Shown here one piece after another: positions 21,001-26,623 of a DNA stretch of 64,000 nucleotides. Origin of the DNA: Escherichia coli (GTDB lineage: Bacteria; Pseudomonadota; Gammaproteobacteria; Enterobacterales; Enterobacteriaceae); NCBI RefSeq assembly GCF_044324875.1, contig NZ_CP172185.1; one strand, given 5' to 3'. Numbering within the stretch: the stretch's first letter is position 1; each line of letters begins with the position of its first letter. Made by a program: the position numbers.

Positions 21001-24000
21001 TCTGCTGAACAATTGCGATCTTTTCCTGTGTGGTACGCCGTCTGCGTTTCTCCGGCCCTAAGACATCAATCATCTGTTCTCCAATGACTAGTCTAAAAAC
21101 TAGTATTAAGACTATCACTTATTTAAGTGATACTGGTTGTCTGGAGATTCAGGGGGCCAGTCTATTATACAGGTTGTAATGAATTTGCAGCATTCGTCAG
21201 CCCAAGTAAGGATATGCCCTATATAATTAACATAGGAATTTGAGTATAGAGATGGCAAAAAAAATCCAGTAACGGGAAAGGATTCTCATGTTGCTACTTT
21301 ATGTCATGAAATGTCTCATATTCAGTGGTATTATGGGGATAATAAAAAAGGTGGTATGTGGTCACAGGATTATACAACTACTGATAAATATTCAACGTGC
21401 AAAGAGGATGAAGTTTCATATGACGAACATATCCGTATTGCAACTAAACTGATCTCTAAACAAAAAGATCAAATATTCGAGAATGCATATAACATAGAAA
21501 GATATTTTGAAATAAGATTAATTGAAAGTGAGATAGACTCGATTAATGATGAAATATTAAGCAATTCAGTTAAGAAAAAAATAGCGGAATTAGAAAAAGC
21601 ACTTCTCCATTAACTAATAAGTCGAGAAATATATTAATGCTGCAAGCTATAAAAAAAATCATAATAATGACAATCGTAAATATTATATTTTTCTATTCCT
21701 TTCAATCGACTGCGGATGAAATGGTTTTAATAAAAAAATACGGGTTTGGGCTTGAGAGAGATATCAAAGGAAGGCCATTAATTTATCCTATCGAAAATTA
21801 TGATGAGTGTAAGAAAAAATGCAATCATATGAATTATATAGCGGATGTCAATGCTCAATTAGCTATGAGTAAAAAAATAACAGGATTTTTGCTAACATAA
21901 CCTTTACTAACAATAGCTCTACCACGTATTTTTTTTCTAAATATTACCTACCTATGAAAGTAAAAGATGGAAAAGGAGATGAATATGATGCGATATGCAA
22001 AAAACCATTCAGAATCAACTCTGGGAATATCACGTTGGACTACTTAGGTGGTTCATGTCCTTTTGAAATTAATACGAATCCTGAACGGTGGAATACTATT
22101 AAACCAGGTCGTAGTTTTTTGTTGAGTATAACCTTAAATGATATGTATGCCTTTATACCAGGAGATAATTATTATTTTATAAAATCATCTGGCTATAAAT
22201 TTGTTAATGACAAGTGGTTTACACTCAAATCAATCAATAATATTTTTCTTTATTTTTTAAATTTAAAAATTAATTGTGCTGATGATTTTTTTGATATTAA
22301 TAATTTTACTACATGTGATAATTTGTTATTAGATGAAAAAAAACACTTTTTTATTAATCAGTTATGGGCAATTGAGGATGAAAAAAATTCTATTTACGTC
22401 ACCCCTGATGAAATTTCTATAAGTATAGACGGCGATAACTTAAAGTTGCCATATTAGGAATCTGTGAAAGAACAAGGTGCGCCGCTTTTTTGTACTAAAT
22501 AATTCGCATTTTAGTCACGGCAGAGAAGAAATCCATCTTCATATTGTTTGCGATGTCCCTGATGAACTTATTGATTTCACGTTTGAATGGAAAGGTCAGA
22601 AGAAATTATGCGTGGCAGTCTCCTTTTGGTCAATAATAGCAGAACAAAAGAAAGAGCCAGAAATGACGGTCAGATATTATATCAGTTCTGCTGATTTAAC
22701 CGCAAAAAAGTTCGCCACAGCGATACGAAATCACTGGCACGTGGAGAATAAGCTGCACTGGCGTCTGGACGTGGTAATGAACGAAGACGACTGCAAAATA
22801 AGAAGAGGAAACGCCGCAGAATTATTTTCAGGGATACGGCACATCGCTATTAATATTTTAACGAATGATAAGGTATTCAAGGCAGGGTTAAGACGCAAGA
22901 TGCGAAAAGCAGCTATGGACAGAGACTACCTCGCGTCAGTCCTTGCGGGGAGCGGGCTTTCGTAATCTTGCCCTGGCGATCGAATAGCGCAGATGACGGT
23001 GCTCTAAATTTGAATCTAATAAGCCGGTGTTATTTTTCATCCACTATTAAAATCTTGACACAACGAGGCAACAATGAAAAAAAGCAAAAAAATTAAAACA
23101 ATGAACCATCAAAATAATAGCGGGATACAAAATCAACCAGACTATCACATCGAAATAGAAAGAAAAAATATGGTAAGATTGCTTGATGAACGTATTGATA
23201 AAGTTTACGGTTCATTGCTAGGACCAATGAAAAAGAAAAATATAGATAAAATACGTCATTTTACACTTGATGTAATGGTGTTTATTCTTGACACGAACCC
23301 TCGTGTTTGTAATAAATTATCCAGGGAAATAATATCTTTAGCGCAAAATACCTTCATTGAAAAAAACGTTAATTTTTCAACTTTTAATAATGAACAGCAT
23401 AGAATAAGGGAGTATATGAATGAAGTGGTGGAATACGATGGTTTACATGGGATAACCCCGAGATATCTTTTGTTCGTGCATCTTTTGGCCTTTTTGTCAA
23501 AATGGAAACAAAAGGTGATCATGAACATACACTAAGTGACACATTTCTTCAGATTGTTGAGTGTGTTAATTTAAATATAGGACTTATTGCAAAAGATGAA
23601 CTGGTAAAAATCATCAATAAACACTTTATGTAAAAATATACTTCTGTATGAAGTTATAATAATACAGTGAAAATCATCAAATTATTAATTAATGATGCTC
23701 TTTGTTATTATTTACTTTTTACAATTGAATCAGGGGTTTTATTTTCTGTAGTAAAGTTGTATTTTTGCTAAAGGTGATAAAGTACAGGTGTTTATATTAA
23801 ATTAGAACTCCCCTTAATTATCATAAATACAAAGAGGTGAAAACATGCGGGGGTGTTTTCGTTAAATAATACCATGGTGAATTAATAACATGCTATCAGT
23901 GATATACATATTTTCTCTAACAAAGTTTTAGTAAAATTACGCGTAGTAAGAAGATTCCGCCAAAGATTCCATATAATAATATTAAGGTTGTTATGAATAA

Positions 24001-26623
24001 AGGTAATAGATTACAACAGTTAGAAGATGCGTGTCGTGATATTATTAAAATTAACATGTGGTATGAACTCCCCGATTATGTATTTTTTTCAATATCTGAC
24101 ACCATCGATGGGACGAGTGATGAATTCGCAATAAATGTGTATAAAAATATCGATAAAAGTCTTCTTGAAATATTATTGCATCCATCTGTTTTACTGTCAG
24201 TTGTTGAGTCCTTACAAAGTAATACTATAGCTGAGTATATCGTGAAATTGTCTGAAATAGAGATGAATTATGACGACTTGCTAATATCGGATGTTAAATC
24301 ATGTCTTTTTATCAACTATGGATTCAATAACAGTGAATCGGTTGCGCTATTTAATAAGATTTACCGCGAATTAAAAGATATTGTAAAATCATCAAGAGTA
24401 CATATAGATCATGAGAAAGATATTTTTGATGGCCTTAATCAAATCTTGGCTTTTTCCGATAATAATAAACATGAGTATTTTTTATATATAAAGGCATATT
24501 GGCTCAGTTTATACTTTTGTGAAATTTCACAGAACGTGAGAGAAAGAGATAAGTTGTCATTTTATTATAATGAATTTTCTGTCCGATTTCCTAATGTTGT
24601 CCTATATCCGTCATGCTACAAATTGTAAGGCTTGGCACCTGAAATTCATTGTTAATTCGAGACGCTTGATTGTCCACTATATCAAAACAGTCATACCTCG
24701 GAATTTTCTCGCATTAGTCCATACGGTATTCAATATTCGCAACTGTGCCCTGAAATAAAAAACTGCAAAACTGCTTTTTCTTGACCTGTCCCAATCACGC
24801 AAGACTACTTTTAGTAGAGACCTCCAGCTATGTCGATTTTAGTGCCGCCCGCGCATTTTATACAAAACAGGGCTTTATTAATGAAGCTATAATACGCAAT
24901 TACTATGATGTTGGTGAGGATAAATTAATCTTCACTAAAAATATGCAATCGTGAGATAAAATATGCTTTTAACTCATATTGAAACATTGCTTAAGCAACT
25001 TGGTTGCTGCATATGATTCTTTAGCCCGCGGTGACTCGCTTGCCGCTGGTAACAAACGTGCCAGCACCTAAGTGATGTAGTGTATTGAGTTTATCATCAT
25101 CAAACTGCCAGCGGCCTTCGACAAATACCCGTGCGTCTGCCGCTGCTGATACCACCTCGCCAAACAGCGTGTCGTATTTTTCTTGTGCGGAAGTCGCAGG
25201 TAGCAAGCGACACTCCATCCATGCCAGACATTTTTCTTCAACAAGTGGCAAACCAAGCACCGGACCTTTCACCACCGGAATGCCATAGCAATTAAATTTA
25301 TCCTCTTCACGCCCCGAAACACTTCCCACCGCCCACGTCCAGTTAGTCGCTGCAACGCCCGGGATAACGATGCCAAATTTACCGTTACGTTCAATCAACT
25401 CCCTGGTCCATGTCGATTTATCTACCACAATCGCCACACGTGGCGGTTCAAACTCTACCGGCATTGACCAGGCCGCAGCCATAAGGTTACGCCGCTGAGA
25501 TTGATCATCGAAACTGGTTATCAAAACTGTAGGGCCGTGGTTTAACAGACGGCTGGCATGATGCAACTCGACGGAGATAAATCGGCTCACGATAGCGCCT
25601 TGCTATGAAGGGTGTTTTAAAAGCGTAGCTCGTAACGCAATAAGCAACGAAATTAACGGGATCGGCGATTTGCGAACGTGATGTATGTCCGCGATCGCAC
25701 AAAATAGCCTGTGCGGCGTCTATTCCAGGTTATAAGTTGATAAAACCACTAACGGAAACGCCTGATGACGCCCATTCTGAATCATTATTTTGCTCGCATT
25801 AACTGGTCGGGAGCTGCTGCGGTCAATATCGATACGCTTCGTGCATTACACCTGAAACACAATTGCACCATTCCATTTGAAAATCTCGATGTTCTGCTGC
25901 CGAGGGAAATGCAGCTTGATGATCAATCTCTGGAAGAGAAATTGGTGTTCGCCCGGCGTGGCGGTTACTGCTTTGAACAGAATGGCGTGTTTGAGCGGGT
26001 ATTACGCGAGCTGGGTTTTCATGTGCGCAGTCTGTTAGGGCGCGTAGTGTTATCTAATCCGCCATCATTACCGCCGCGCACGCACCGTCTGTTGTTAGTA
26101 GAACTGGAAGGTGAACAATGGATTGCCGACGTTGGTTTTGGTGGTCAGACGCTGACCGCGCCAATCCGTTTAGTGCCGGATATCGCGCAAACAACGCCAC
26201 ATGGCGAATATCGGCTGTTACAGGAAGGGGACGACTGGGTTTTGCAGTTTAATCATCATCAGCACTGGCAGTCGATGTACCGTTTTGATCTCTGCGAGCA
26301 GCAACAAAGCGATTATGTGATGGGTAATTTCTGGTCGGCGCACTGGCCGCAATCGCATTTTCGCCATCATTTGTTAATGTGCCGCCATTTGCCGGACGGT
26401 GGCAAGCTGACACTGACCAATTTTCATTTCACCCATTATGAAAATGGACATGCAGTGGAGCAGCTAAATCTACCGGATGTGGTGTCGTTGTATGCAGTGA
26501 TGCAGGAGCAGTTTGGACTGGGCGTGGATGATGCCAAACATGGGTTTACAGTGGATGATTTAGCGTTGGTGATGGCAGCGTTTGATACGCATCCGGAGGC
26601 GGGGAAATAGTTTATATCAGGTT

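Follow-up and report, generated by a model that had tools for sequence, protein, structure and literature searches.

We analysed a 64,000-nucleotide stretch of the Escherichia coli chromosome (contig NZ_CP172185.1 of assembly GCF_044324875.1; hereafter the window), in which remnants of an ISAs1-family insertion sequence (IS) and of a GNAT N-acetyltransferase gene lie between positions 22462 and 24954; features are on the plus strand unless stated otherwise. ORF (open reading frame) content and megablast identified the region as yncG to yddH-nhoA-yddE-narVWYZ, and locus identity and collinearity were established by comparison with E. coli 042, K-12, LF82 and 6EVA. Positions 2478–14482 and 21164–26659 are collinear with strain 042, in which the gene order is PAAR, VgrG (tssI), 'peptidase M35', a 273-aa hypothetical protein, an incomplete ISAs1 transposase, two hypothetical proteins of 186 and 211 aa, and yddH. 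The same flanks in K-12 enclose yncH, rhsE', ydcD, yncI', ydcC (the H-repeat, H-rpt) and pptA, and b1455–b1461 are included among the E. coli Rhs regions in Table 6 of PMC3032704. The span 22462–24954 is the right-hand edge of this hypervariable yncG–yddH locus (rhsE in K-12). It is followed by yddH (25021–25590, minus strand; flavin reductase family, from the ORF list and the annotation of 042, LF82 and K-12), where conserved core genes start on the right-hand side of the variable locus, and GC content is 27–35% in the 21.2–25.0 kb segment compared with ~52% in the flanks. Our analyses indicate that the span very probably consists of a gutted ISAs1 element, two probable orphan immunity genes and a GNAT relic created by deletion, at the edge of a variable locus. 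An earlier sequence-only reading had reported both remnants at about these positions, and their matches are far beyond chance (NF033564, E=7.5e-34; GNAT, E=1e-34).

The ISAs1 element (ISEc1, or H-rpt) has lost its middle and kept both of its ends. When aligned with the full-length ISEc1 references from K-12 (8673–9964 of the compared K-12 locus), R32_14_1F and SCU-102, its left terminal 52 bp (22462–22513) were found to be fused straight to IS nt 829–1292 (22513–22976; blastn and BLASTP), which carry the 3' part of the transposase gene and the right inverted repeat. Hence 776 bp (nt 53–828) were deleted internally, in place of the simple 5' loss that the sequence-only reading had assumed. Nucleotides 26–52 of the left end match ISEc1 at 96%, and the retained 464 bp are 95–96% identical to the K-12 ydcC H-rpt and the R32 copy (blastn). 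The left inverted repeat is degenerate (CTGTGAAAGAA versus the consensus CAGGGAAAGAT, with 8 of 11 positions matching) and the right one, ending in ATCTTGCCCTG, is intact. The NCBIfam model NF033564 matched from profile positions 201 to 314 of 314 (117 bits against a cut-off of 70), BLASTP against K-12 YdcC gave 144 identical residues out of 153 (94%, residues 226–378 of 378, E=7e-105), and the Pfam DDE_Tnp_1 match was confined to profile positions 139–200 of 200. With its stop codon at 22963–22965, the frame retains around 150–153 residues of the ~378-aa DDE transposase; it is the C-terminal part, as had been claimed, although longer than the ~125 residues then estimated. The N-terminal 225 residues are gone, and tblastn of YdcC residues 1–225 against all six frames of the 64 kb gave no match better than E=0.1. 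The in-frame GTG at 22477, inside the retained left IS end, is a spurious start, and the ORF that begins with it is not to be called a gene; the Prokaryotic Genome Annotation Pipeline (PGAP) labels the identical sequence in 042 'ISAs1 family transposase, incomplete, missing N-terminus'. No target-site duplication was found, the flanks (ending in TTAGGAAT and beginning with GCGATCGA, respectively) being unrelated, and 27 bp of filler (22977–23003, without strand; alignment and 6EVA blastn) lie between the right IS end and the point at which homology to 6EVA resumes. Among 5426 complete RefSeq E. coli genomes, which do not include the window's own, the same ISAs1 junction is present in 221. Copies per genome are unreadable from this junction search, as its match counts were dominated by ordinary ISAs1 elements and the query carried 22 nt of locus-specific flank. 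We also considered mobilization of the gutted element as a miniature inverted-repeat transposable element, of which there was no sign in the 221 genomes; this is an absence of evidence for it and not evidence against it.

The second remnant is a 162-bp 3' relic of a GNAT N-acetyltransferase gene (24793–24954; blastn and BLASTP), comprising codons 103–155 and the stop codon. Positions 24799–24951 encode 51 residues, 47 of which (92%) are identical to residues 105–155 of WP_000470660.1 (BLASTP), the intact 155-aa 'GNAT family N-acetyltransferase' of E. coli 6EVA, whose gene is convergent with yddH; the gene is also intact in LHM10-1. Alignment with 6EVA (blastn) matched window 23004–24795 to 6EVA 7001–8785 and window 24793–31350 to 6EVA 9249–15780, and a single 463-bp deletion, equivalent to 6EVA 8786–9248 and associated with only a few bp of imperfect microhomology, separates the two blocks. 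This deletion took ~157 bp of upstream DNA, including the promoter region, together with codons 1–102, and within these the acetyl-CoA pyrophosphate-binding loop of motif A (Q/R-x-x-G-x-G/A; here QRQGVG, residues 84–89), which is carried by the longer E. coli versions that the 66-codon frame retrieved from the database. Homology at the DNA level begins at 24793, without a start codon; the sole in-frame start upstream, a TTG at 24781, lies in unrelated sequence after a TGA at 24751–24753. The sequence-only description of a frame holding the last ~50 residues and no start codon was therefore accurate. Its label 'RimI-like' is loosely acceptable: the full-length protein matches Pfam PF13508 (6.6e-10) and PF00583 (5.6e-8), its nearest solved relative is 2r7h ('putative D-alanine N-acetyltransferase'), and RimI (5isv, 2cnm) comes next, as a distant relative (E=6.5e-5). 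The relic alone gives a sub-threshold rimI match (E=3.4e-4, 20.8 bits versus a cut-off of 86.4) and no Pfam match. Its end is 66 bp from the convergent yddH stop codon. GNAT residues 1–102 had no tblastn match better than E=0.1 in six frames of the 64-kb window. Because the missing halves of both genes are absent from the 64 kb, frame correction cannot restore them, as the sequence-only reading required, and neither the transposase nor the acetyltransferase can work, since the N-terminal 225 residues of the one and the start codon and acetyl-CoA motif of the other are gone. Both are thus deletion relics without function, lying where a horizontally exchanged island ends on the right, in line with the sequence-only reading.

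Comparison with other lineages provided evidence that deletions have struck this edge more than once, as the sequence-only reading had proposed: the same IS copy, and likewise the same GNAT gene, is broken at different points from lineage to lineage. At the same position LF82 carries an IS copy consisting of nt 1–66 and 621–783, joined to 6EVA 8881, 62 bp upstream of GNAT, a deletion that took the IS 3' part, ORF186 and ORF211 (the 186- and 211-codon genes between the two relics). As each keeps sequence that the other lacks, the window and LF82 forms of the IS are independent descendants of a fuller ancestral copy. In R32_14_1F the right end of a full ISEc1 meets GNAT at the equivalent of window position 24835, ISEc1 or IS1 adjoins shorter pieces of the ORF211–GNAT segment in SCU-102 and AST240, and chimeric ORFs in the protein database (P0005, P0032 and P0006) reveal further junctions of the types ISAs1::GNAT and 273-aa gene::GNAT. 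GNAT sequence is present in 660 of the complete genomes, 433 of which have at least 80% of the gene and its upstream region; among the matches listed, most of the 433 are labelled only 'hypothetical protein' and few GNAT, and the 'hypothetical protein' of LF82 and of L006 is a 71-codon N-terminal GNAT piece. The window-type 162-bp relic occurs in ~225 complete genomes, with the same start nucleotide in the matches listed, and the GNAT junction in 238. B2-type strains (L006 and LF82) have a near-full-length, 154-codon GNAT beside yddH with a TGA in frame (W to stop) that breaks it, and the LF82 copy has a frameshift besides. The GNAT gene has been lost by different routes in different lineages, and independent deletions have hit the same locus edge repeatedly. 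We also noted that the compared genomes hold three internal-deletion derivatives of ISEc1, made up of nt 1–52 plus 829–1292, nt 1–53 plus 548–1291 and nt 1–66 plus 621–783, at window 22513 and at LF82 (L002) 2987 and 8467. Two of the left breakpoints are at most 1 nt apart, directly after CGCATTTTA, and a deletion hotspot may lie ~52–66 nt inside the ISAs1/H-rpt left end, given three independent derivatives.

Between the two relics lie ORF186 (23074–23633) and ORF211 (23993–24628), which, on the evidence of homologue neighbourhoods, are probable orphan immunity genes of an Rhs C-terminal (Rhs-CT), deaminase-like toxin and of an EndoU-family type VI secretion system (T6SS) toxin, respectively. 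A homologue of ORF186 in Citrobacter portucalensis (60% identical) begins 3 nt after a gene for a 1481-aa PAAR-like–DUF6531–RHS protein whose tip weakly resembles a YwqJ deaminase. Another homologue (72% identical), at a different E. coli Rhs locus, follows by 3 nt an orphan Rhs tip sharing 80% identity with the Citrobacter toxin, and is itself followed by a full ISEc1. ORF211 has a homologue (63% identical) in Pseudocitrobacter faecalis, located 17 nt downstream of a toxin set (DUF2169 / PAAR-like / EndoU_bacteria, the last being PF14436, 3e-15), and in a second context a homologue (53% identical) comes after a toxin fragment 71% identical to the Pseudocitrobacter EndoU protein. Since homologues follow toxin tips in these four independent contexts, ORF186 and ORF211 are most likely orphan immunity genes. 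Remnants of the cognate toxins were not detected, tblastn of both toxins against window 10900–25100 giving best E-values of ~0.5–1. The two families have few members, all from Enterobacteriaceae, and carry no Pfam domains; ORF186, ORF211 and the 273-aa gene could not be assigned to any family in Pfam or NCBIfam, and sequence searches of the PDB returned nothing significant for ORF211 or ORF186. An AlphaFold2 model of ORF211 from an 11-sequence alignment was all-helical and was discarded as uninformative (pLDDT 64.9), and Foldseek of this low-confidence model against the PDB gave no match at E<=0.001. Some PGAP records for ORF211, and some RefSeq/UniRef records for its homologues, carry the label 'aminopeptidase', a label that domain searches did not support. 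ORF211 is intact in the window. ORF186 is intact (186 codons) in 042 and 6EVA; in the window one G has been lost near 23425, within GGTGGTGG, leaving ORFs of 153 and 43 aa, and the frameshifted 153-aa product is found on ~151 public contigs.

To the left of the ISAs1 relic lies a T6SS module that starts with intact PAAR (11442–11726) and VgrG (11745–14150) genes, each with an ORF as long as its annotated counterpart in 042. The sequence-only reading of a locus missing its rhs core finds no support in that form: no Rhs core sequence could be detected in the window at the protein or DNA level, and the PAAR, vgrG and M35 module is found instead. The M35-like metallopeptidase effector gene is collinear with 042 WP_000342577.1 ('peptidase M35') and is cut after its 5' part (14140–14482) by an IS2 insertion (14483–21163, minus strand; junction sequences and Pfam on ORFs) with a 5-bp target duplication, TTATA. 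The 3' part (21164–21613) carries an extra 5-bp deletion after 21236 in the alignment to 042. The intact 042 protein itself has a weak Pfam Aspzincin_M35 match (E=0.002, below the cut-off). The IS2 is interrupted within orfB by IS21-family (istA 15161–16807, istB 16581–17579) and IS66-family (17608–20121) elements, and the same IS2 is uninterrupted in a related public assembly (L013). Directly after the effector gene comes a 273-codon putative immunity gene (21637–22457; comparison with 042) with a signal-peptide-like N-terminus, in which an A8 run has become A7 at 21871–21877; this frameshift yields ORFs of 87 and 167 aa, the latter occurring on ~170 public contigs. Relative to 042, the segment 21164–25185 differs by three deletions (5 bp, one A and one G) and zero substitutions. 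The window lineage is well represented among draft assemblies, three of which (L014–L016) are 99.97% identical to the window in this region. The lineage-specific indels are real, because the frameshift products recur on ~150–170 contigs and in drafts that are 99.97% identical. Every part of the effector–immunity module is dead in the window lineage, with PAAR and vgrG still open. The sequence-only inventory of decay, sound for the two relics, left out most of the rest: the IS2 nest, the 5-bp effector deletion and the frameshifts in the 273-codon gene and in ORF186, although the latter falls within the coordinates it had given. It also did not recognize what ORF186 and ORF211 probably are.

A second ISAs1 fragment (11148–11301, IS nt 1–155; blastn to ISEc1 and 6EVA), with the left inverted repeat CAGGGAAAGAT, forms the left boundary of the PAAR–VgrG module, and the left end of the relic forms a direct repeat (D1) with this second left-end copy at 11145–11199. 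ISAs1 termini therefore flank the whole PAAR–VgrG–M35–immunity module, with a left repeat at 11148 and a right repeat at 22976. The locus of 6EVA consists of yncG, three small ORFs, ORF186, a frameshifted ORF211, GNAT and yddH, and lacks IS, vgrG and rhs. Relative to it, the window contains a foreign block running from the ISAs1 left repeat at 11148, where 6EVA homology stops exactly, to 27 bp past the right repeat at 22976, and this block stands in place of 1152 bp (the three small ORFs) of 6EVA. At this vgrG-module position, 6EVA 5870–6962 holds three AT-rich ORFs (90, 118 and 129 aa) without Pfam matches, which may be further orphan immunity genes.

The order of events that we infer from these sequence relationships, breakpoints and distributions, together with immunity as the function of ORF186 and ORF211 and neutral decay behind the changes, would be as follows. 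An ancestor with a full ISAs1 followed by ORF186, ORF211, GNAT and yddH would have given rise to the 042/window lineage through a 776-bp deletion in the IS and, by illegitimate recombination, a 463-bp deletion in GNAT. In the B2/LF82 lineage an independent deletion would have begun within this same IS copy and ended 62 bp upstream of GNAT, which would then have gained a TGG to TGA nonsense mutation. Later the window lineage would have inactivated the effector (through the IS2 nest and the 5-bp deletion), the immunity gene and ORF186. Several points weigh against this scheme. The ancestral order is deduced from few haplotypes, and 6EVA could itself be derived, its ORF211 being frameshifted. The immunity role of ORF186 and ORF211 is argued from gene neighbourhood, and the ORF211 model, with its weak pLDDT, had no fold match. 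The GNAT and IS relics are, moreover, perfectly conserved in at least 175 genomes, so that a residual role is possible; such conservation is as expected for a young clade.

H-rpt/ISAs1 copies are well known as companions of Rhs elements, and this association counts in favour of another explanation, namely that the span is what remains of an Rhs element after deletion of its core gene from the locus. The flanks, yncG to yddH, are those of K-12 rhsE, so that the locus is an Rhs locus with an H-rpt, and the region is among the published Rhs regions (PMC3032704). At this very site other strains have a complete Rhs core with ISEc1 after it, and relatives of ORF186 always come after an Rhs toxin tip, which makes ORF186 the one real hint, as judged from its homologues, of a former nearby Rhs toxin. 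However, neither a tip nor a core (with its YD repeats and PxxxxDPxGL end) could be detected: two Rhs proteins had no tblastn match at E<=0.01 in the 64-kb window, and blastn with the K-12 rhsE–ydcD–yncI DNA returned a match of only 37 bp. The locus is occupied instead by the intact PAAR/VgrG pair and the M35 effector module, and the vgrG-free 6EVA has ORF186–ORF211–GNAT with neither Rhs nor IS. We thus consider a deleted Rhs element unlikely, though it has some claim to attention, and there appears to have been no detectable loss of an Rhs core in the window lineage.

The conservation that weighs against pure decay could also mean that the fragments are retained as functional, whether as a transposase-domain regulator or inhibitor of ISAs1 transposition, as a 57-aa GNAT micro-protein or as an element of the yddH 3' untranslated region. 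Both relics are still open reading frames, they are 99–100% conserved in 175–238 genomes, and the GNAT relic lies close to the convergent yddH stop codon. However, the 4-kb block as a whole, without a single substitution relative to 042, is just as conserved, and the conservation of the relics accordingly reflects recent common descent and not selection. In addition, the GNAT homology begins without a start codon, motif A is gone, as is the bulk of the transposase's catalytic domain (of 200 DDE_Tnp_1 positions only the last 62 are left), other lineages freely delete or replace the relic segments, and Rfam gave no match in the region. Retained function is accordingly very improbable. Still less credible is an origin of the truncations and frameshifts in sequencing or assembly, even though two of the three lineage-specific indels fall in short runs (A8 to A7, and the G within GGTGGTGG): hundreds of genomes that were finished independently share the very same IS and GNAT junctions, ~150–170 independent contigs carry the frameshifted products, and three drafts are 99.97% identical. 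The artefact explanation is effectively refuted. Decay by deletion at the edge of an exchanged island thus accounts best for the two relics.

Other features of the locus concern its boundaries. In K-12, pptA takes the place of GNAT, and homology to K-12 resumes at 24987, window 24987–27000 matching 10251–12237 of the K-12 locus, in which pptA ends at 10286 (blastn). Positions 24987–25020, which match the last ~35 nt of K-12 pptA, may tentatively be seen as a vestige of that gene; tblastn of the window found no PptA match at the protein level. Substitutions relative to 042 number zero over the 4 kb of window 21164–25185, compared with 141 differing positions in ~1.5 kb of yddH–nhoA and 97.7% identity in the left flank. 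Recombination has exchanged either the island or yddH–nhoA, with a boundary within yddH at ~25186. An Rfam scan found no match in window 20–26 kb; elsewhere in the window it identified SECIS_3 (84 bits) and the Hfq-binding small RNA STnc490 (146 bits), at 43285–43343 and 47533–47656, respectively. Relative to 042 there is also a second IS2 copy of ~1.3 kb (~36060–37387), between narU and a gene for a leucine-rich-repeat protein.

The ISAs1 relic resembles the Rhs-associated H-rpt/ISEc1 copies of K-12 (ydcC and the defective yncI) in its 95% DNA identity over 464 bp, its terminal repeats and its locus. Unlike them, it lacks IS nt 53–828, follows a VgrG–M35 module and has no recognizable target-site duplication. 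The description of H-rpt copies beside Rhs elements reportedly goes back to work by Zhao and colleagues in 1993 (J Bacteriol). Defective H-rpt copies beside Rhs/T6SS cargo are typical, and are mentioned in PMC3032704. The GNAT relic has the same position as the gene for WP_000470660.1 of 6EVA and LHM10-1, is likewise convergent with yddH and is 92% identical over residues 105–155; unlike that protein it is no functional family member, only the last third being left. In gene order the module is similar to VgrG-linked M35 effector–immunity pairs such as PAR M35 of E. coli and VgrG2b of Pseudomonas aeruginosa (PMC10673891), with vgrG followed by an M35-like toxin gene and then by a periplasm-targeted immunity gene. 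It differs from them in that effector and immunity gene alike have been inactivated and the Pfam M35 match is weak (E=0.002). Kirchberger et al. (2017; PMC5361080) attribute the orphan immunity arrays of Vibrio cholerae T6SS clusters to sequential effector displacement. ORF186 and ORF211 would be comparable, as small, toxin-less immunity-type genes at the 3' end of a vgrG/effector module whose relatives are paired with toxins elsewhere. They would differ in belonging to an E. coli auxiliary vgrG/rhs locus, in being split from the current pair by an IS relic and in that one of them is a pseudogene.

The changes at this edge are decay of an ordinary kind, IS-associated and by illegitimate recombination, at an Rhs/T6SS locus known to be hypervariable, and PGAP has annotated part of them already; the locus, long known as a rearrangement hot spot, offers here an instance of ordinary pseudogene formation. 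Modestly new are the candidate immunity assignment of ORF186 and ORF211 and the recurrent ISAs1 breakpoints near nt 52–66. Two wider ideas are possible, and we hold them tentatively: that ORF186 and ORF211 might found two unannotated immunity families, directed against an Rhs deaminase-like tip and an EndoU T6SS toxin and retained at the edge of the locus as a protective 'memory' after toxin displacement, and that the left-end hotspot might be a property of ISAs1/H-rpt elements whose paired ends help to move T6SS cargo. Because paired ISAs1 termini bracket the PAAR–VgrG–effector module, there is a hint that H-rpt ends help to move or replace such cargo. For annotation, the gene call at GTG 22477 should be dropped, ORF186 and ORF211 are better called candidate orphan immunity genes, and the 162-bp GNAT relic is unannotated in RefSeq genomes. 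For the biology of E. coli, the haplotype series 6EVA, 042/window, LF82, R32 and K-12 illustrates the swapping and erosion of T6SS/Rhs cargo beside a fixed yddH.

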